From positions 34,054 to 98,053 of the forward strand of contig JAJDXV010000087.1 of the NCBI GenBank assembly GCA_022823085.1: a DNA stretch of 64,000 nt. Direction: 5' to 3'. The position numbers were made by a program, and so were the translations under genes. Source of the stretch: Candidatus Poribacteria bacterium (GTDB lineage: Bacteria > Poribacteria > WGA-4E > WGA-3G). Position 1 is the stretch's first letter; each line of letters begins with the position of its first letter. Of this stretch, positions 28,494-37,603 are shown piece after piece. Under the pieces are notes generated by a model. It was not told the origin of the DNA. It ran no database searches and saw only the letters and a program-made list of their open reading frames with translations.

Positions 28494-28733
28494 ATGAAAC
28501 AAGCGGACTATACACCCGATAAACTTTCTGCTGAAGCTTCAGAATCTAAATTGCGTGGTAAGGAAGTTGGGATAGCACCTTGTAGCCAAGAAAGGTCTAG
28601 ACCTATACCACGTCCGAATTATACAATAGAAGAACTTTTAGCCAAGGTCCCAGAACCTAAAGTTAAAGTCCGAAAATCCGGCTTTTCGGAAGAAACAGAC
28701 ACCGGTCCGCCGGTGGGCAAGGAGGTTTGGTAA
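28494..28733 (+). CDS. MazE/PemI-like antitoxin with an atypical N-terminus
   Basis: AAGGAG RBS. The C-terminal YTIEELLAKVPEP...ETDTGPPVGKEVW parallels the MazF-binding tail of E. coli MazE (FTLAELVNDITPEN...IDWGEPKDKEVW). I could not recognise the N-terminal AbrB-type swapped-hairpin sequence. Confidence 0.55.
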   Translation: MKQADYTPDKLSAEASESKLRGKEVGIAPCSQERSRPIPRPNYTIEELLAKVPEPKVKVRKSGFSEETDTGPPVGKEVW

Positions 28734-28741
28734 ACTTCAAT

Positions 28742-29116
28742 ATGTATGTTCCACGACACGGTGATATCGTGTGGATTGACTTTGAGCCTCACGCCGGACA
28801 TGAGCAGGCAAAAGAGCGTCCGGCTCTTGTACTCTCTGAAGAAATCTATAATCGTAGATTGTGGTTGGCAATTATGTGTCCAATCACGACCAGCCGGAAA
28901 CCCTACCGTGCAGATCTTGATGTTCCAATCCCACCAGGCGTAGAAATTCAAAGTAAGGACCTCACTAGAATTATTGAGCTTGATGGAGTCATTCAAGCGG
29001 ATCATATCAAAAGCCTTGATTGGTGGGAAAGACGCGCGCGGTACGCGGGGGATATGCCAGATGAAACTGTTGTTCGGGTTTTGCAAATCGTTGCTACCCT
29101 TGTGAAAATTTGGTAG
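28742..29116 (+). CDS. mazF: MazF/PemK family endoribonuclease toxin
   Basis: MYVPRHGDIVWIDFEPHAGHEQAKERPALVLS closely parallels E. coli MazF (YVPDMGDLIWVDFDPTKGSEQAGHRPAVVLS). There is an 8-nt gap after the antitoxin stop. Confidence 0.85.
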   Translation: MYVPRHGDIVWIDFEPHAGHEQAKERPALVLSEEIYNRRLWLAIMCPITTSRKPYRADLDVPIPPGVEIQSKDLTRIIELDGVIQADHIKSLDWWERRARYAGDMPDETVVRVLQIVATLVKIW

Positions 29117-29296: not shown

Positions 29297-31300
29297 ATGC
29301 CGAGCCAACACGAAACAACAATTACAAACGAATTAGTGAACATCCTACGGAACATGCGACATAAATGGGAAGTCGAAACAGCAGTTCATGCGTTCATCAA
29401 AGGTCACAGTGAGCTTGATGCACTTGTGATTGAAAGAGGTAGAGAGCCTATTGGTATAGAAGCCAAATTTGATACTGTCACTAACGCTAAAAACCTCATC
29501 AAACAAGCAGAAACACGGCTTTTCCATGAATTGGAAGCAGAATACTATACCTCCGAGAAAACCCTCAATAACGTCATGGCAATTCTGTACCCTGACCGTT
29601 TTAAAACGATGTCTGGACAAAATATCAATCCACAACTCCGCGAGGCGAACGATCTGCAGTACAAACTCGTCAGTACTCTTGGAGATACTGTCGGACACTT
29701 CCCAAAAGACGGATGGGCAATAGGGACAGTTGCAGACATCGCCAATGCGTTACACGTCGGAGCAATACCCAACTCCCAGTTGGAACAGGCAGCAGAGGAG
29801 ATGGAACTTAGCGTCAATCGGGCAGCCCATCTACTTGAAAATGCTATTACTGAACACCGTGCTATGGGGACGAAAATTGAGGCAATCCTACATCAAGAGG
29901 TCTTCGCTAAAGATGAAACAGATGAAGAGGAAAAACTCAATCTACAAACTCTTCGCATGGCAGCACTGATTATCACCGATGCCTTCGTCTTCCAGAGTTC
30001 GCTCGCTGGCAAAGAAGAAATAGAAATGACCTCCGTCCGTTCACTTCATCAACTCTTGCCTACAATTGACTACGCCGATGTTATAGCGGATTGGAGCACT
30101 ATCCTTAAAGTCAACTACCGTCCAATCTTTGAAGATGCCCGTGAGCTCGTTAAGGCTCTTGCAACAGACGATAGACTGGTTAAACATGTCTTAAAACTTC
30201 TGTGTGCGGCAGCTAAAGATCTCGTTGATACCCGCATCGCGCAAATCCATGAACTCGCAGGTATAGTTTTCCAAAAATTAATCACTGATAGGAAATACGT
30301 CAAGGCGAACTACACGCTGCCGGAAAGTGCAGTGTTGTTATCAACCCTCGTGATGCCTGAACTGCCTAAAGGCAAACTTCCGAAAGTGGCGGATTTTGCT
30401 TGTGGGACTGGAGCACTGCTCAACGGAGTATACCAACGCATACTATCCTTGTACGAACAATCTGGTGGAAACGGCAAAGATATTCATCAGCGAATGTTGG
30501 AGAAGAACATCGGGGGTGTGGACATTATGCCGAATGCGACACACCTCACCGCAGCTGCACTTGCGAGTACGTATGCAGGGGTCAAAATCGGCGGCACGCA
30601 AATCGTAACTGCACCTTACGGCGTAACCGATAATGGGAGTTACACAATCGGCTCATTGGAATTGCTTGACGATATAAAACTATTTGACACAGAGGCTGAG
30701 CAGATAGGCGGTGAGGAAAATACGGTAGTTAAACTCCAACAGACGTTCCCACACGGTGATATGGACATTGTTATACAAAATCCGCCCTTCACAAGACCGG
30801 GATCGGATAGCAATACCGATGTACCAAAATCTACTTTCCAAGGCAGTGATCGACCTAAGGAAGACCAGAAGTTGATGCAGGCTGCATTGAAATCTAAAAA
30901 TACAAGCGTAACTGATGGAACTAACGGTTTTGTTTCTGCTTTCATAGAACTTGCTGACAAAAAACTGAGAGATGGTGGTACAATGGGTTTCATTTTGCCA
31001 CTAACAGTGTTGAGATCTCCCACTACGCAGGAACTACGAGATATGTGGGCAAACGAATACCACAACGTAGTCGTGATAACCATGGCGCAGGCAAAAGCAG
31101 AAGATTGCACATTCTCTGCAGACACGACTATGGCAGAATGTATCGTCGTCGCAACGAAAGGTATAGCTGAAAATACTGGACGCGGGAAGTTTGTCTGTCT
31201 CGCTGATAAACCACATAGTCCACTTGAATCTGTTGAAATAGCAAATCAGATTAACAGAAGCAACAAAATACGAAAACTCGCTGGTGCAACTCGAGTTTAG
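29297..31300 (+). CDS. PD-(D/E)xK nuclease + gamma-class N6-adenine DNA methyltransferase fusion without a target-recognition domain (Type IIB BcgI-A-like layout)
   Basis: Nuclease signature D41...E55-A-K57 (ELDALVIERGREPIGIEAKFD). MTase motif X-like NYTLPESAVLL, motif I DFACGTGALL (nt 30392-30415), and motif IV QNPPF (nt 30779-30790). The post-catalytic block is GGTMGFILPLTVL...TFSADTTMAECIVVATKG, and the protein stops about 50 aa later. Confidence 0.8.
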   Translation: MPSQHETTITNELVNILRNMRHKWEVETAVHAFIKGHSELDALVIERGREPIGIEAKFDTVTNAKNLIKQAETRLFHELEAEYYTSEKTLNNVMAILYPDRFKTMSGQNINPQLREANDLQYKLVSTLGDTVGHFPKDGWAIGTVADIANALHVGAIPNSQLEQAAEEMELSVNRAAHLLENAITEHRAMGTKIEAILHQEVFAKDETDEEEKLNLQTLRMAALIITDAFVFQSSLAGKEEIEMTSVRSLHQLLPTIDYADVIADWSTILKVNYRPIFEDARELVKALATDDRLVKHVLKLLCAAAKDLVDTRIAQIHELAGIVFQKLITDRKYVKANYTLPESAVLLSTLVMPELPKGKLPKVADFACGTGALLNGVYQRILSLYEQSGGNGKDIHQRMLEKNIGGVDIMPNATHLTAAALASTYAGVKIGGTQIVTAPYGVTDNGSYTIGSLELLDDIKLFDTEAEQIGGEENTVVKLQQTFPHGDMDIVIQNPPFTRPGSDSNTDVPKSTFQGSDRPKEDQKLMQAALKSKNTSVTDGTNGFVSAFIELADKKLRDGGTMGFILPLTVLRSPTTQELRDMWANEYHNVVVITMAQAKAEDCTFSADTTMAECIVVATKGIAENTGRGKFVCLADKPHSPLESVEIANQINRSNKIRKLAGATRV

Positions 31301-31407
31301 GGTTGTTTTGCCACTGGGCACACAGCAGCAAACAGCAGATGGGACGCGGCACACTCCGCCGCGAAAATTCAAACAAGGTACAAAGCGATCTGCTTTTTTA
31401 GAGACAT

Positions 31408-31436
31408 TTGACACAGATATTAAAATGTGATACCCT
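31408..31436 (+). promoter_or_regulatory. possible extended -10 promoter TTGACA-N17(TGA)-TACCCT in front of the STAND gene
   Basis: -35 at 31408-31413, a TG at 31428-31429, and -10 at 31431-31436 (T1, A2 and T6 conserved). It is preceded by the stem CGCGGC-ACACTCC-GCCGCG (31345-31363) and a T6 run (31394-31399). Confidence 0.35.
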
Positions 31437-31467
31437 ATTTATATCCTAAATTTTTCGGAGATATATA

Positions 31468-34400
31468 ATGAATCGTGCCACTATTTCCACGGTTAAACCG
31501 GAACACCTTAGCGGACTTAGTCAGGCAGAAGCTGTTCTGTTTTTCAGAGATTTGCTCTGGGCGGAAGCGCGCCGACTAGGTCCAGGCACTTGTAAAATTG
31601 ACGTTCCAAACGAAATCAATGCTCCAGATGGTGGGATTGATGCTACGGTTAATGCAAGTTTATCTGTTCCACAAAGCGAAATAATTGAGCCAGGCAAAAA
31701 TGGTTACCAGATTAAATCGGGTTCTGAATTTAAACCGTGGCAAAAATCACAGATCAGGAAAGAACTCTTCGGTGGGACCAGGACACCGATGACTAAAGAG
31801 AATCTTGGCCCAAGCATTCGTGCTTGCCTTGAGGTCAGTGATACCGACGCTGTGTATGTCTTAGTCTGTACGGAAATCAACCTGAGTCGGTCACGAACGA
31901 ACCAGGCCCGATCTCACATTGAGGAATGCTTGAAACAGTGCGGTTATCAGAATCCCAAAGTCAAGATTTGGAGTCAAGACGATTTGATTAATTTTCTTCA
32001 AGAGTTCCCATTGTTAGAATTGAACCTTAGGGCTTTCCGTGCAGACAATTTCAAAATCCACCGGGATTGGTCTAAGTATCCGGATATGCAAGTTCACTTT
32101 GAGCCCGGAAGACCACAAAGCGAACTCATTGAGAAAATACAGAATGATTTACGGCAAGATGACTATCCGGTTCATGTACGGGTGTGGGGAGAACCCGGCA
32201 TCGGTAAAACAAGATTAGTTTTAGAAGCTACCGCGGAAGAAGATTTATCACCATTAGTTATCTATTGCCGTTCAGCTGTGCAGTTTAAATCCGGTGGTTT
32301 AATGAACGAAATTCGCTTCAATGAAAACCTCTTCGCCGTTGTAGTAATTGACGAATGCGATCCGAGCAGCCGATTTGATATTTGGTATGAACTTCAACAT
32401 TGTAGCCCAAGGATTAAACTAATTACTATCTATAATGACTATGAGGAAAAGTCCGGAGGTATTACTTACTATGATATGCCATCTTTAGAGCCTAAACAGA
32501 TCAGTAACATTATGATTCAAGAGTATAAAATACCTGAGGATCAGGTAGACCGATGGGCAGAACTCTGTGGTGGTTCACCGCGAGTTGCCCATGTCATTGG
32601 TCAGAACTTAGTGAATTATCCAGAAGACGTGCTCAAGATACCCAGTACAGTCGAAGTTGATATCTGGGAACGTTACATTGCTGCAGCTGATCAAGACAGC
32701 GAAAAGACGGAGCACAGGCGAGTGGTGCTTCAACATCTCGCACTTTTTAAACGTTTTGGTTATGAAAGATCTGTTGATTTTGAAGCGCAAAGTATAGCTA
32801 AAAAGGTGGAGATCGCTAATTCAGACATCACTTCGTACAAATTTGAAGAGATCATCTATGAGCTCAGAGAACGTAAAATCCTTCAAGGTGATTCTACGCT
32901 TTACATAACACCAAAGGCATTACATATTAAATTATGGACACAGTGGTGGGAAAGGCATTACAAAGGATTCAACCTTGAGAGATTCACCGAGGACTTAAAC
33001 CCCAAATTGGTTGAGTGGTTCTATGAGATGTTTAAGTATGCCGCTGAATCGGATGCAGCATCCAAAATTGTCAAAACTCTCCTTGGTCCTGATGGACCAT
33101 TTCAGGATGATGAATATCTGAAAACAAGGCTGGGTAGCCGTTTTTTTCTCGCCCTGACTGAAGCGGATCCCGAATCAGCTTTGAGATGCCTGATGCGGAC
33201 GTTAGGGAATTGGGATACAGAGACACTTTTGCAATTCACAAGCGGGCGAAGAGATGTGGTATGGGCTCTTGAAAAAATTGCCGTATGGCGTGATTTGTTT
33301 GTTGATGCCGCAAGGTTACTTCTTGCCCTTGGAGAAGCTGAGAATGAAAACTATTCAAACAATGCTAGTGGCGTATTTGCCAGTCTCTTTTCGCCGGGGC
33401 CCGGCAGAGTAGCACCGACTGAAGTGCCTCCAGCAAAACGGTTACCGGTCTTGGAAGAAGCATTTGAATCCAATTCAAAAGAACGCCGGGCACTTGCATT
33501 AAAAGCCTGCAATGCTGCATTAGAATCAGAACATTTTTCGCGAGGAATAGGGGCGGAATATCAAGGGTTACGCAATCCTCCTAAACTTTGGGAACCTAAA
33601 ACATATGATGAGCTGTGGGATACTTACCGTCAAGTGTGGCAACTTCTATCTGGACAATTACCGCGTTTGCCTCAAGATGAGTGTAAAGAGGCCGTAGAGA
33701 TTCTCTTTGAAAGGGCAGGTGCGCTTGCGAAAATCCCAGATCTAAGTGATATGGTTATAGATACGGTGATAACAATTGTCCACGAAAGGTATGTAAGTCA
33801 AAAGCAGGTCATTGAAACAATAAGCCAAATCTTGTACTATGATGACACCTATGACGACGACTTGCCAGTCGAAATTCGACAACGTTTTGAACAACTTCGA
33901 GATGAATTGGTTGGTTCTGACTTTCATTCCCTAATGCAACGATATGTTGGGATGGACCTGCTTGAAGACCAACTTGAAGCAAACAAAGATGAAAAAAATC
34001 GGGTACAACCTCATCTTGAAAAACTTGCCCGGCAAGCCTTTGAGGATCCAACACTTTTGCAAGCGGAGCTTCCATGGCTTGTAACAACTGAGGCGAAAAA
34101 TGGATACAAGTTTGGGTATGAACTTGGAAAAAGAGATAATCATTTTTCCCTTCTACCAACACTTTTGGATGCTCAACGAAACGCAATTGACAATGCAAGT
34201 GTCTATTTTCTCGGGGGTTATTTCCGAACAATTTTTGAAAACGATTTGGCAGAATGGGAAAAACAACTTGATGTACTGGTTGAAGATACGACACTAAGTG
34301 TAGTGATTTCAGATCTCACACATCGTTCCGGTTTGACAGATCGAGCAGGTTTGCGTCTTCTTAATCTCGCCCAAAGTGGTGTTATCGGTATTAATCACTT

Positions 34401-35298
34401 TGGCATTTTTGTCTACGGTAAAGCAATTGAGAGTCTATCCGAAGCAGTCTTCACAGCGTGGATTGAATTTTTGTTGAGTTTTATGGACAAATCTGCTATG
34501 TCAATTGCATTGATTCTTTACCACCGCTATTATGGTCCTCAGAGATCAAAGTTAGTTTTACCGTGTGATCTGACATTCCAGTTGCTCACGCATCCATTAC
34601 TATTTGAAGAGTCAGAAAAAAAATTGTTTAATCCAATGACTGATTACCATTGGACAGAGATTGGAAAAGTGTTTGTGCAATCCTATCCAGAGAAGAATTT
34701 AGAACTTCTAAAAATAATGCTTGCTCACTTTGGTCAAAAAGGATCAATAGTTGATAATTACTCGAAAACCTGCTCAGTATTGACAGAATTGACAAGACAG
34801 CATCCTATACAGGTTTGGAAGCATGTTAGTGAATATTTAGACGCACGAGATCATTTTTTAAGAACGTTTGCCCTTGAAAAATGGCTGAGGGAAGCAGATA
34901 TCTCTGCAACAGAAAAAGAAAAAGGAGCATTAACACTCATTCCGTCCAGAGAAATCTGGAAATGGATTGATGCTAATGTGAAAGATCGGTCACAATATGT
35001 TGCCCGTAGTCTTGTTCCTAAAACACGCTTAGTAGAAGAATGGCCAACTTCTTTGGCAAGGGAAATTCTTGTACGTTATGGCAAGCGAAAAAAGGTTCGA
35101 CAAGGTCTCATATCAAATTATTCCACAGGTGTATGGGTGGGACCTGAGAGTTTACGCTATGAGAGGAAAAAACAGCAGTTGCTCCATATTAAGAATAGCG
35201 AAGATAACAAGAATGTCCAACTCTGGATTGACGATTTCGTAGAAGTTTTGGACAAAGAGGTTGAACGCGCAAAGGTTGAAGAAGAAAGGGAGTTTTAG
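31468..35298 (+). CDS. Mrr-like nuclease + STAND P-loop NTPase + long helical-repeat C-terminus (Avs/AVAST-like antiviral NTPase architecture)
   Basis: N-terminus FFRDLLWAEARRLG...APDGGIDATV...GYQIKSG matches the Mrr catalytic pattern D-x3-D...Q-x-K (D54, D58, Q81, K83). Walker A is GEPGIGKT (nt 32188-32211) and Walker B is VVVIDECD (nt 32338-32361). A GG.P motif CGGSPRVAHVIG resembles the STAND GxP/GLPL region. About 850 aa of Leu/Glu-rich helical sequence follow. A GGAG RBS lies upstream. Confidence 0.8.
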   Translation: MNRATISTVKPEHLSGLSQAEAVLFFRDLLWAEARRLGPGTCKIDVPNEINAPDGGIDATVNASLSVPQSEIIEPGKNGYQIKSGSEFKPWQKSQIRKELFGGTRTPMTKENLGPSIRACLEVSDTDAVYVLVCTEINLSRSRTNQARSHIEECLKQCGYQNPKVKIWSQDDLINFLQEFPLLELNLRAFRADNFKIHRDWSKYPDMQVHFEPGRPQSELIEKIQNDLRQDDYPVHVRVWGEPGIGKTRLVLEATAEEDLSPLVIYCRSAVQFKSGGLMNEIRFNENLFAVVVIDECDPSSRFDIWYELQHCSPRIKLITIYNDYEEKSGGITYYDMPSLEPKQISNIMIQEYKIPEDQVDRWAELCGGSPRVAHVIGQNLVNYPEDVLKIPSTVEVDIWERYIAAADQDSEKTEHRRVVLQHLALFKRFGYERSVDFEAQSIAKKVEIANSDITSYKFEEIIYELRERKILQGDSTLYITPKALHIKLWTQWWERHYKGFNLERFTEDLNPKLVEWFYEMFKYAAESDAASKIVKTLLGPDGPFQDDEYLKTRLGSRFFLALTEADPESALRCLMRTLGNWDTETLLQFTSGRRDVVWALEKIAVWRDLFVDAARLLLALGEAENENYSNNASGVFASLFSPGPGRVAPTEVPPAKRLPVLEEAFESNSKERRALALKACNAALESEHFSRGIGAEYQGLRNPPKLWEPKTYDELWDTYRQVWQLLSGQLPRLPQDECKEAVEILFERAGALAKIPDLSDMVIDTVITIVHERYVSQKQVIETISQILYYDDTYDDDLPVEIRQRFEQLRDELVGSDFHSLMQRYVGMDLLEDQLEANKDEKNRVQPHLEKLARQAFEDPTLLQAELPWLVTTEAKNGYKFGYELGKRDNHFSLLPTLLDAQRNAIDNASVYFLGGYFRTIFENDLAEWEKQLDVLVEDTTLSVVISDLTHRSGLTDRAGLRLLNLAQSGVIGINHFGIFVYGKAIESLSEAVFTAWIEFLLSFMDKSAMSIALILYHRYYGPQRSKLVLPCDLTFQLLTHPLLFEESEKKLFNPMTDYHWTEIGKVFVQSYPEKNLELLKIMLAHFGQKGSIVDNYSKTCSVLTELTRQHPIQVWKHVSEYLDARDHFLRTFALEKWLREADISATEKEKGALTLIPSREIWKWIDANVKDRSQYVARSLVPKTRLVEEWPTSLAREILVRYGKRKKVRQGLISNYSTGVWVGPESLRYERKKQQLLHIKNSEDNKNVQLWIDDFVEVLDKEVERAKVEEEREF

Positions 35299-35608: not shown

Positions 35609-37603
35609 CTATTGAACTGTAATCAATATCGGTTCAACGCCTTGTGTCTCTTCGACGTGCTGCTTGAGGTTTGTTGCTTCCGAACGTTGTACAAACTGCC
35701 CGATCGTTACCCGATGCATCGTTCTTCCTTCAACGACGGCTGTATATATCTGCACTTTCTCATTTGGATACATCCACGCCAAATTATCAGCCAGCATTTC
35801 AGCGTTACGAGATTCTCCAAAAGAACCAACCATCAAAGTCAGCCTTGCTGTCGGGACAAGCGATGCTGTTGCTGTGACCGGTTCTACTATCGGTTCTGGC
35901 TCCGCTCCGAGTGTGAGCTGTGCTTCTCGTGTATTCTGGTTGCCAGCGATGTCCTGAACTTGCAACTTGCCAGTATAGGTGGCAGCAGGCTGCGACTGAA
36001 TTTTGGTTAAAGTGATCTCTTCTGGTGGCGCGCCATCTCCCTCTACCTGTTCGACGAGTGTGTTCTCGATATCGAAAAGTTCGAGTTTCCAGTGTGCAAG
36101 TGGACTCATATCCCATGTCTTCACACCGACCGTTGTCGCTGTCTTTCCAAAGAGTTCTAACGTTGTCGGGATAAGGTCTACCGTAATCTTCTCGCTGTCT
36201 TTTAGGTGCGGTTTCCCTTGCGCGTCAAGGACGTGCAGTTCGATCGCGTAGTCGCCATCTGGAACCAAGTTACCTGTGTTCGCGATCCCGTTCCAAACGA
36301 TACCTTCTCTCGGAAGACCTGTTCCAGATTTTTCCCAAACACTTTCGGTATATTCATCACGGATATTTAACTGCCACTTTAAGGTGTTGCTTGCCATTCC
36401 TTGTGAGTTTTCGGTTTCCGTGAGCTGCAAGCGGAGTGTTGTTTCGTCAGCGATGCCGTCGTTATTCGGCGAGATCACTGGGTCTGAAAGTTGCAATTCT
36501 AACATTGTTGTTTCAGCGGTGAGGGTTGCAGGCATTAAAATCGGTGCGGGTTCTTCCTGTACCTGTACCTCTTCTGTTTTTGGGGCTTCAGGAGGCGTGT
36601 TTGCTAATACCGGTTGTGTGTTGCCGTCGCCCCAACGTAAGGTTGCGGAGATCCAGTGTACGCCATTCTCAAGTTCGCTGCCGCTAACGTAAGCGTAATC
36701 AAGTTGTCCTGCGGAATTTCGGAAACTGACCCCTCTTGCCAATTCACCTTCCAAGAATCTATCGGAATTTGTTAGGGTGGTATAACCGACACGGAGTCCG
36801 AAGTGTCCGTTGATGAGCCAGTGCTCGGCACCGATATGGAGTCGAAGCCGTTCGCTCCAATCTATGCTGTTTTCGCCTCGGACAGCGAAGTCGGCGGAGA
36901 AAAGCGTATGGCTGCCGAATTCGTAGGTTGACCCGAAACGTGCTGCGAGCGGCGAACTCTCAAGGAGGATTCCATTTTCTCGGATACCGTTGCTCAGTTC
37001 CGAGAAGTTGACACCGACCTTCACCGTATCACCCCATTTTTCCAACGGGTAGGCGAACTGCATCCCTAAATCTACGCTCCATAAGAAGTTAGTTCTGATA
37101 GGGTTGTTGTTTTGATAGTATCGTAAGTTTGCACCGGCTGAAGCGTTATGTCCGAACGCGAGTCCGTATCCTAAAAGCACGATCTGTGTGGATTCAGCTG
37201 TATCGTTTCCCCAACCGTCAAGCCATGTTGCAAAAGATAAGTTACCTAAGTCTCTGTCTGTTATACCGAACGATTTTGGGTTCGCGGCGATAGAGAACGC
37301 CTGTTCGCTACTTGATGTGCTACCGGGAAACGGCATCCCTCCCATGCTCACTTCTACGCCGTCCATAAATCCTAATGAAGATGGATTCCAGAGGAAACCG
37401 TTATTCGCTGAGGGACCCGCCGTGAATGCGCTCCCCATACCGACTGCCCGGGCACTTGCGCCGACAAAGATATCGCGGTGTGCTATACTGGAAGCATCTA
37501 CCGGAACGGATACGGCCGCTAAGATGATCACAACCAAGCCGATTGTTTGCGCGATTCGCAGCAAAGTGCTTTGTCTGTTAAATCTAAGAAAATTAAATTG
37601 CAT
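35609..37603 (-). CDS. outer-membrane beta-barrel-like protein with FlgD-Ig-like middle domain and C-terminal SPOR domain
   Basis: Signal/TM at the N-terminus. GASARAVGMGSAFTAGPSANNGFLWNPSSLG is a PorV/FadL-like barrel start. The middle region has ISPNNDGIADETTLRL and VWNGIANTGNLVPDGDYAIEL (FlgD-Ig-like). The C-terminus LTLMVGSFGESRNAEMLADNL...HRVTIGQF is SPOR-like. Confidence 0.55.
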   Translation of the reverse strand: MQFNFLRFNRQSTLLRIAQTIGLVVIILAAVSVPVDASSIAHRDIFVGASARAVGMGSAFTAGPSANNGFLWNPSSLGFMDGVEVSMGGMPFPGSTSSSEQAFSIAANPKSFGITDRDLGNLSFATWLDGWGNDTAESTQIVLLGYGLAFGHNASAGANLRYYQNNNPIRTNFLWSVDLGMQFAYPLEKWGDTVKVGVNFSELSNGIRENGILLESSPLAARFGSTYEFGSHTLFSADFAVRGENSIDWSERLRLHIGAEHWLINGHFGLRVGYTTLTNSDRFLEGELARGVSFRNSAGQLDYAYVSGSELENGVHWISATLRWGDGNTQPVLANTPPEAPKTEEVQVQEEPAPILMPATLTAETTMLELQLSDPVISPNNDGIADETTLRLQLTETENSQGMASNTLKWQLNIRDEYTESVWEKSGTGLPREGIVWNGIANTGNLVPDGDYAIELHVLDAQGKPHLKDSEKITVDLIPTTLELFGKTATTVGVKTWDMSPLAHWKLELFDIENTLVEQVEGDGAPPEEITLTKIQSQPAATYTGKLQVQDIAGNQNTREAQLTLGAEPEPIVEPVTATASLVPTARLTLMVGSFGESRNAEMLADNLAWMYPNEKVQIYTAVVEGRTMHRVTIGQFVQRSEATNLKQHVEETQGVEPILITVQ

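Follow-up and report, generated by a model that had tools for sequence, protein, structure and literature searches.

Avs8 is the closest described relative of the gene analysed here, which occupies positions 31468-35298 of a 64,000-nucleotide stretch of a Candidatus Poribacteria contig (assembly GCA_022823085.1, contig JAJDXV010000087.1, positions 34,054 to 98,053 of the forward strand; this whole stretch is the window) and encodes a 1276-residue protein with a nuclease-STAND-sensor architecture, called the STAND protein below. The system was known as PD-lambda-4 and has since been renamed Avs8 (10.1101/2025.07.02.662641; 10.64898/2026.01.04.697583). Its Escherichia coli protein Avs8A combines an Mrr nuclease and a STAND nucleoside triphosphatase (NTPase) with a C-terminal helical-repeat sensor, binds the monomeric HK97-fold major capsid protein (MCP; dissociation constant about 127 nM for lambda gpE), and degrades double-stranded DNA only in the presence of Mg2+ and ATP. 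Mutants in its nuclease site lose defence, and Avs8A works alone, the partner gene product Avs8B being dispensable (10.1101/2025.07.02.662641). Avs8 is described as an MCP sensor (10.64898/2026.01.04.697583). The basis of recognition by Avs8A is complementarity to the fold, so that capsid proteins with less than 15% identity to one another are bound; the characterised Avs families in general retain their target across very divergent members (10.1101/2025.07.02.662641; 10.64898/2026.01.04.697583). Lee et al. (10.64898/2026.01.04.697583) find that specificity is set by the type of sensor and not by the NTPase clade, and list several STAND families with no identified trigger. Other capsid-sensing STAND families are Avs7 and Avs10, with a Cap4 nuclease as the effector of SeAvs7 (Lee et al. 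2026, 10.64898/2026.01.04.697583). Avs3 and Avs4 (Gao et al. 2022) are receptors of the nuclease-STAND type for phage terminase or portal that form tetramers and then degrade DNA.

The STAND protein is very probably a divergent, single-polypeptide receptor of the Avs8 (PD-lambda-4) superfamily. It belongs to a known family and is not a new kind of system. The PADLOC profile PD-Lambda-4_A (PDLC03991) matches its residues 12-1004 over profile positions 9-1012 of 1283 (E=2e-23, 80 bits), far more weakly than it matches a bona fide PD-Lambda-4_A member (E=0, 1777 bits). The NTPase-domain sequence of E. coli Avs8A, taken from a supplementary table of Lee et al., led to a homologue on an Enterobacter plasmid (L001, 6353-10201; 1283 residues) with an NTPase domain 74.7% identical to that of E. 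coli Avs8A and a PADLOC match of E=0. BLASTP aligns the STAND protein with this relative colinearly at 20% identity (residues 5-685 against 2-682, E=2e-14). At the profile level the homology runs from end to end: hhalign aligns the clade of the STAND protein (A1, 28 members) with the Avs8A family (A2, 22 members) over 1204 columns, residues 5-1271 against 2-1274, with a probability of 99.85% and E=1.6e-30. An Avs8A hidden Markov model also matches, colinearly, all 84 of the 84 related proteins from the fetched loci. These comprise 78 loci from species-representative genomes, roughly 50 of them from Poribacteria; the search patterns were peptides from a Poribacteria-dominated alignment, so the excess of Poribacteria is partly an artefact. 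In the supplementary files of Lee et al. that were searched, Poribacteria have no entry, and two Walker A strings used as queries were both absent.

The gene and the parts of its product are as follows:

31468..35298, plus strand: the complete STAND gene, stop codon included, encoding the 1276-residue Avs8-like protein (open reading frame list and translation)
31397..31460, plus strand: putative expression signals, a sigma-70-like TTTAGA-18-TAAAAT (31397-31426) and GGAG (31457-31460) (consensus scan and sequence reading)
31468..32022, plus strand: predicted N-terminal effector, a nuclease domain of PD-(D/E)xK (Mrr) type, residues 1 to ~185 (AlphaFold2 topology; segment hhalign against Avs8A)
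31627..31641, plus strand: first part of the catalytic motif, D54-G-G-I-D58 (D54, G56 and D58 invariant in 27 diverse homologues)
31708..31716, plus strand: second part of the catalytic motif, Q81-I-K83 (Q81 and K83 invariant; inside the predicted strand 76-84)
32080..32877, plus strand: predicted STAND NTPase module, residues ~205-470, with nucleotide-binding domain, helical domain and winged-helix-like region (Foldseek; hhalign)
32188..32211, plus strand: Walker A, G241-E-P-G-I-G-K-T248 (G241, G244, G246, K247 and T248 invariant)
32338..32361, plus strand: Walker B, V291-V-V-I-D295-E296-C-D298 (D295, E296 and C297 invariant in the clade)
32572..32580, plus strand: G369-S-P371, a presumed GxP-type motif of the helical domain (clade and cross-family alignments)
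32878..35295, plus strand: putative alpha-solenoid sensor, residues ~470-1276 (AlphaFold2 all-helical repeat; segment hhalign against the Avs8A sensor)

The STAND gene is real and intact. Its open reading frame (ORF) starts with ATG, has zero internal stops, and is preceded at 7 nt by GGAG, a putative Shine-Dalgarno sequence. The sigma-70-like call is weak evidence, since the consensus promoter scan found no more sites than in shuffled sequence. The end of the spacer, 31422-31467, is conserved at the DNA level with one of the closest relatives (L004). A word-indexed search returned 1349 relatives, the best 120 of which are 58-100% identical and nearly all span the full length; homologues at 58-80% identity cover 100% of the protein. 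When 1.84 billion cluster representatives were scanned exhaustively with HMMER, 3227 clusters, counted at 50% identity, reached E<=1e-3 and 1203 reached E<=1e-30; most of the 150 best have ~1250-1280 residues and align colinearly. Because so many relatives are near full length, the ORF is not a chance one. ORFs antisense to the gene and internal to it (for example 33809-34294) were set aside as mechanical artefacts.

The N-terminal domain, residues 1 to ~185, is a PD-(D/E)xK core in the structural model and a predicted nuclease. When 27 homologues that are 20-59% identical and include one Avs8A relative are aligned, only D54, G56, D58, Q81 and K83 among the first 200 residues show no variation. 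The AlphaFold2 (AF2) model of residues 1-470 has a mean predicted local distance difference test (pLDDT) score of 76.5, and the N-terminal elements run helix 19-36, strand 42-45, strand 57-63, strand 76-84, helix 93-121, strand 129-135, helix 141-157 and strand 164-168. This is an alpha-beta-beta-beta-alpha-beta core in which D54 and D58 begin the second strand and Q81-x-K83 lies within the third. Some family members carry 80-100 additional residues before the nuclease domain (L075, L083 and L084; P0344, P0353, P0356, P0364 and P0386), an extension that looks like an XRE-type helix-turn-helix.

Residues ~205-470 are a STAND NTPase, as judged from the structural model. G241, G244, G246, K247, T248, D295 and C297 are invariant in the clade of the STAND protein and the Avs8A family taken together, and the invariance of the nuclease and Walker motifs across divergent homologues means that they are not there by chance. 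The two Walker motifs follow the consensus forms GxxxxGK[ST] and hhhhD[DE]. No member of the clade departs from S370, P371 and R372; G369 is near-invariant there and fully so across the two families, and we take G369-S-P371 to be the GxP motif of the STAND helical domain. The best Foldseek matches of the P-loop module in the PDB are plant NLR NB-ARC proteins (NRC4, 9cc8, E=3.4e-5; NRC1, 8bv0; Sr35, 7xc2) and SAMD9 (9zjw), followed by ORC/RFC AAA+ proteins and, further down, Avs5. The template modelling (TM) scores of these matches are only ~0.3, partly because the query included the nuclease domain. The 50 matches listed for the N-terminal model include neither a KAP nor an ABC ATPase.

A sequence-only reading of this stretch had proposed a 1276-residue protein with an Mrr-type effector, a STAND NTPase and a large helical sensor, and this architecture holds. 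Both Walker motifs lie where it placed them, and neither of the two results that it named as refuting was obtained: the P-loop module resembles NB-ARC/STAND proteins and not KAP or ABC ATPases, and the N-terminus is predicted to fold as PD-(D/E)xK. The Mrr motifs are at the place given (PDGGIDATV at residues 53-61, GYQIKSG at 79-85), but the gap of 22 residues between these strings was misplaced: 17 residues separate them, and 22 is the spacing from D58 to Q81.

The C-terminal part, predicted in that reading to be helical, is indeed all-helical in the AF2 model of residues 425-1276, a HEAT-like solenoid with a mean pLDDT of 82.7. Structure comparison of this model with Foldseek matches only generic HEAT/ARM solenoids such as transportin-3, CAND1 and importin-beta (TM ~0.3). 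By analogy with Avs8A, the solenoid would be the sensor. As the N-terminal part can carry a long alignment, segments were compared separately with Avs8A using hhalign. Residues 1-200, 200-430 and 430-700 are each significant with a shallow clade profile of 28 sequences. With a deep profile of 122 representatives, at most ~50% identical to one another, every segment aligned independently and all matches are colinear: 1-200 to Avs8A 2-185 (E=9.6e-19), 200-430 to 220-417 (E=4.4e-19), and 430-700, 700-1000 and 1000-1276 to the equivalent Avs8A segments (E=2e-14, 5e-11 and 8e-5, the last with a probability of 61%), while 700-1276 as a whole aligns to 732-1274 (E=6.9e-15). What had been called an unassigned sensor is thus the Avs8A sensor in a form that has diverged very far. 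The sequence-only reading had held that residues 430-1276 resemble nothing that could be named and that a new sensor may mean a new trigger. The first statement is overturned by the profile-level homology, and the idea of an unprecedented sensor is not upheld; as for the second, the protein is a colinear homologue of Avs8A, the trigger of which is known, and a changed specificity, conceivable at ~20% identity, is no longer the default expectation.

Several observations weigh against the assignment to Avs8 or limit what may be drawn from it. Identity to the validated Avs8A relatives is only ~19-22%, and neither the protein nor the clade profile retrieved a relative from the PDB sequences, hence no Avs8 structure for comparison. 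Residues 700-1276 are not significant against Avs8A with the shallow 28-sequence profile (E about 0.15); the sensor homology thus rests on the deep profiles, and conservation of the trigger is an extrapolation. No Avs8B was recognised: the upstream ORFs have no PD-Lambda-4 match, only PD-Lambda-4_A models matched in the scans, and the spacer between the STAND stop codon and the convergent downstream gene holds only ORFs of <=58 residues, so no Avs8B-like ORF lies there; as Avs8B is reported to be dispensable, function is not defined by its presence. General family models are of little help. Mrr_cat (PF04471) has no Pfam match at E<=1 in the STAND protein or in 27 homologous N-termini, and the label "Mrr" thus rests on the DGGxD...QxK motif and the published Avs8A annotation; DUF4365 gives weak Pfam matches in 5 of the 27 N-termini (best E=0.014). 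In the NTPase module the Pfam matches to AAA_16 (17.6 bits against a cut-off of 32.6) and NB-ARC (13 bits against 23.5) are confined to the Walker A region, 219-258; AAA_22 has a sub-threshold match in the whole protein, and a search of the protein against NCBIfam returned nothing meaningful. Finally, the STAND gene recurs at syntenic positions in Poribacteria, which is unusual for a defence gene, a class with a patchy distribution.

The mechanism proposed for the STAND protein follows E. coli Avs8A and Avs3/Avs4 by analogy in all of its steps. In an uninfected cell the protein would be an autoinhibited monomer. During infection the solenoid would wrap around a newly made monomeric phage protein, most probably an HK97-fold MCP, and binding would free the NTPase, allowing the protein to oligomerise in an ATP-dependent manner, probably as a tetramer. 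The nuclease domains, brought together in pairs, could then degrade double-stranded DNA indiscriminately, so that the infection is aborted. That an HK97-fold MCP is the trigger is the identification towards which we lean slightly, by analogy with Avs8A; it is held less firmly because the identity of the sensor is very low.

It is possible, if doubtful, that the STAND protein is the same machine with a different trigger, its sensor having diverged so far that it responds to some other phage protein in place of the HK97-fold capsid, or else to a host factor or a nucleic acid. The identity of the sensor to that of Avs8A, at most ~19%, is consistent with such a change, as is the fact that residues 700-1276 go undetected with the shallow profile and that the last 276 residues reach only E=8e-5 with the deep one. 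Lee et al. also tie specificity to the type of sensor, and several of their STAND families lack a trigger. Against this, the sensor is colinear with that of Avs8A throughout and the two proteins have the same overall size (1276 and 1283 residues), the characterised Avs families keep their targets despite divergence, and Avs8A itself tolerates highly dissimilar capsids.

A broader version of this idea is unlikely: the Poribacteria-centred clade would be a functionally distinct offshoot of Avs8, in which either a remodelled solenoid detects another phage protein and not the HK97 capsid, or the STAND gene forms an ancestral cassette with a 986-residue Eco57I-type methyltransferase. If true, such a linked cassette would couple DNA methylation to a STAND-gated nuclease, which is not described for any Avs system. 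In the window the methyltransferase gene lies directly upstream of the STAND gene:

29297..31369, plus strand: decayed Eco57I-type N6-adenine methyltransferase; ORF 29297-31300 (667 residues) corresponds to residues 1 to ~660 of the 986-residue enzyme, followed by an out-of-frame remnant at 31282-31369

ORF 29297-31300 matches the Pfam family Eco57I with E=2e-10 and 41.5 bits, above the curated cut-off of 25.3; the domain includes NPPF, and a D...ExK motif stands in the N-terminal part. In relatives the enzyme has 986-989 residues. The product in the window is 85% identical to residues 1-662 of the enzyme in L004 and then ends; the DNA of the window aligns to L004 3910-5889, 6456-6544 and 6956-7100, so that 566 and 411 bp of the L004 sequence are missing at two internal points. 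The 566-bp deletion causes a frameshift, and through both deletions the C-terminal third of the enzyme (~320 residues) is lost. With the deletions and the frameshift, the gene in the window is therefore a remnant, and since the STAND gene beside it is intact, the STAND protein probably works alone.

A two-gene system, in which the methyltransferase and the nuclease-STAND protein form one unit, with methylation for example marking host DNA that is to be spared or targeted, and of which the window would hold a crippled copy, is improbable. What speaks for it is a methyltransferase homologue directly upstream of the STAND gene, on the same strand and 14-130 bp away, in ~16 of the ~50 Poribacteria loci; the methyltransferases next to STAND genes form two clades, 41-47% identical to each other, that diverge roughly in parallel with the STAND genes. 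The enzyme is missing, however, from most loci, from every non-Poribacteria locus examined and from some Poribacteria loci at identical syntenic sites, and in the window it is the methyltransferase that has decayed, next to a STAND ORF that is intact and has kept all its catalytic residues. Plasmids carry relatives of the methyltransferase (23-34% identity) that stand alone: those of Sulfuricystis (L085, 6980-9895), Aminobacter (L086, 6854-9697) and Nitrosospira (L087, 7001-9934) adjoin PRTRC-system, ArdC-like metallopeptidase and type IV secretion genes and have no STAND gene nearby. The N-terminal D...ExK motif, as read from the sequence, gives the enzyme the look of a self-contained architecture like that of type IIG enzymes, and E. 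coli Avs8A for its part works alone. As an obligate partner the methyltransferase is thus rated unlikely. Most likely it is a frequently co-inherited neighbour of restriction-modification type and not a required partner.

The STAND gene lies in a low-GC stretch from ~27.8 to 35.5 kb, with a GC fraction of 0.39-0.46 against 0.47-0.52 in the flanks. The other genes at this islet and beside it are:

28494-28733: small ORF of 79 residues with no family match, 5' of the MazF/PemK ORF and overlapping it by 7 nt
28727-29116: MazF/PemK toxin ORF at the left edge of the low-GC islet (Pfam E=7e-25)
35609-37603, minus strand: gene for a SPOR-domain protein, the next gene downstream, convergent and ~310 bp after the STAND stop codon

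The pair at 28494-29116 resembles a type II toxin-antitoxin module. No tRNA genes and no flanking direct repeats that would mark a mobile element were found. In the closest relatives a DUF433 gene lies 3' of the STAND gene (L004 10855-11202, L005 10878-11225 and L006 11458-11910). DUF433 was dropped as a candidate partner: a related ORF lies within 5 kb in only 9 loci, not always downstream, and is absent from the window. In the Poribacteria locus L005 (2783-6678) the methyltransferase and the STAND gene are separated by a 265-residue gene, an ATPase resembling PtuA/AriA (E=2e-25 to PADLOC AriAB) and an insertion sequence (IS) element with an rve transposase, and this insertion spot behaves as a small defence island.

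Relatives of the STAND protein occur in many species of Candidatus Poribacteria, in Brocadia, Nitrospirota, Planctomycetota, Acidobacteriota, candidate-phyla-radiation lineages and Chlamydiales, and also in archaea and on cyanobacterial and haloarchaeal plasmids. The closest are 78-80% identical, several of them from Poribacteria metagenome-assembled genomes, which, with the 85%-identical methyltransferase of L004, points to a Poribacteria genome as the probable source of the window. Three Poribacteria genomes carry two paralogues each (L019/L040, L032/L052 and L033/L047). Within Poribacteria the gene is found at two conserved chromosomal sites, each with or without the methyltransferase: site A (L009, L012, L015, L020, L025, L031, L033, L052, L067, L072 and L076) and site B (L017, L024, L027, L028, L037, L039, L040, L049, L060 and L064). 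Judging by gene sizes and sequence, the neighbour at site A is presumably a MoxR-type AAA / DUF58 / BatA-like operon, and those at site B we take to be a sugar-nucleotidyltransferase-like gene and an MBL-fold gene. In three loci the STAND gene itself appears disrupted, split over two frames or with internal parts missing (L064 10001-13163, L044 10001-13782 and L083 10001-13728), so decay also affects the STAND gene.

That the STAND gene is no defence gene at all, and is a housekeeping or regulatory STAND gene retained by the Poribacteria lineage or an inactive relic, is very improbable. Such a reading would fit the recurrence of the gene at two syntenic positions in the genomes of many Poribacteria species, some of which hold two copies, and the lack of any match to the STAND protein in the phage collection. 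Against it, the apparent enrichment in Poribacteria is biased by the search patterns, the catalytic residues of both nuclease and NTPase show strict conservation, the protein is homologous to an experimentally validated defence protein, and the family spans many bacterial and archaeal phyla as well as plasmids. The gene also sits in a low-GC islet, and its neighbours across the loci include IS elements, a PtuA/AriA-like ATPase, a gene of restriction-modification type and a type II toxin-antitoxin pair.

As a divergent Avs8 receptor, the STAND protein extends the Avs8/PD-lambda-4 family of capsid sensors far beyond Gammaproteobacteria. The clade newly linked to this family comprises thousands of sequence clusters from uncultured phyla and archaea that current Pfam and NCBIfam models leave unannotated. 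For the Poribacteria gene the assignment yields a testable prediction, capsid-triggered DNA degradation by an immune protein. A comparison of divergent sensors that bind the same fold would reveal how pattern recognition that works through structure copes with drift of the sequence. A secondary lead is the methyltransferase that recurs beside the gene. Current understanding is not overturned by this gene; its interest lies in the size of the clade, the extreme divergence of the sensor and the methyltransferase neighbour.

Among known proteins, the NB-ARC modules of plant and animal NLRs and SAMD9 resemble the STAND protein in the NTPase module only, and their effector and sensor domains are unrelated. 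Avs7 and Avs10 would share its target class, the HK97-fold MCP, if the trigger proposed above is right; according to Lee et al. they have other effectors and sensors of unrelated architecture, and similarity between them and the STAND protein was not detected. Avs3 and Avs4 follow the same plan, with a nuclease as effector at the N-terminus, a STAND switch in the middle and, at the C-terminus, helical repeats that sense a single phage protein by binding it. They differ in their sensors and expected triggers and have no detectable sequence match, the PADLOC scan having returned only PD-Lambda-4_A models, and their deposited structures are absent among the Foldseek matches listed for the N-terminal model. 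Avs8A of E. coli ECOR07 (WP_000963924.1; Vassallo et al. 2022) is the nearest. The STAND protein is only ~20% identical to it and falls in a separate, very large clade centred on Poribacteria and other uncultured phyla, whereas Avs8A is centred on Gammaproteobacteria. Its Walker B reads D-E-C where Avs8A has D-N-C, its GxP motif G-S-P where Avs8A has G-N-A, and its locus lacks Avs8B, some relatives having the upstream Eco57I-type methyltransferase instead. The two proteins are nevertheless alike in length (1276 against ~1283 residues), in the order of Mrr-type nuclease, STAND NTPase and helical-repeat sensor, in the invariant D..D..QxK and Walker residues, and in a colinear homology that at the profile level extends from end to end.

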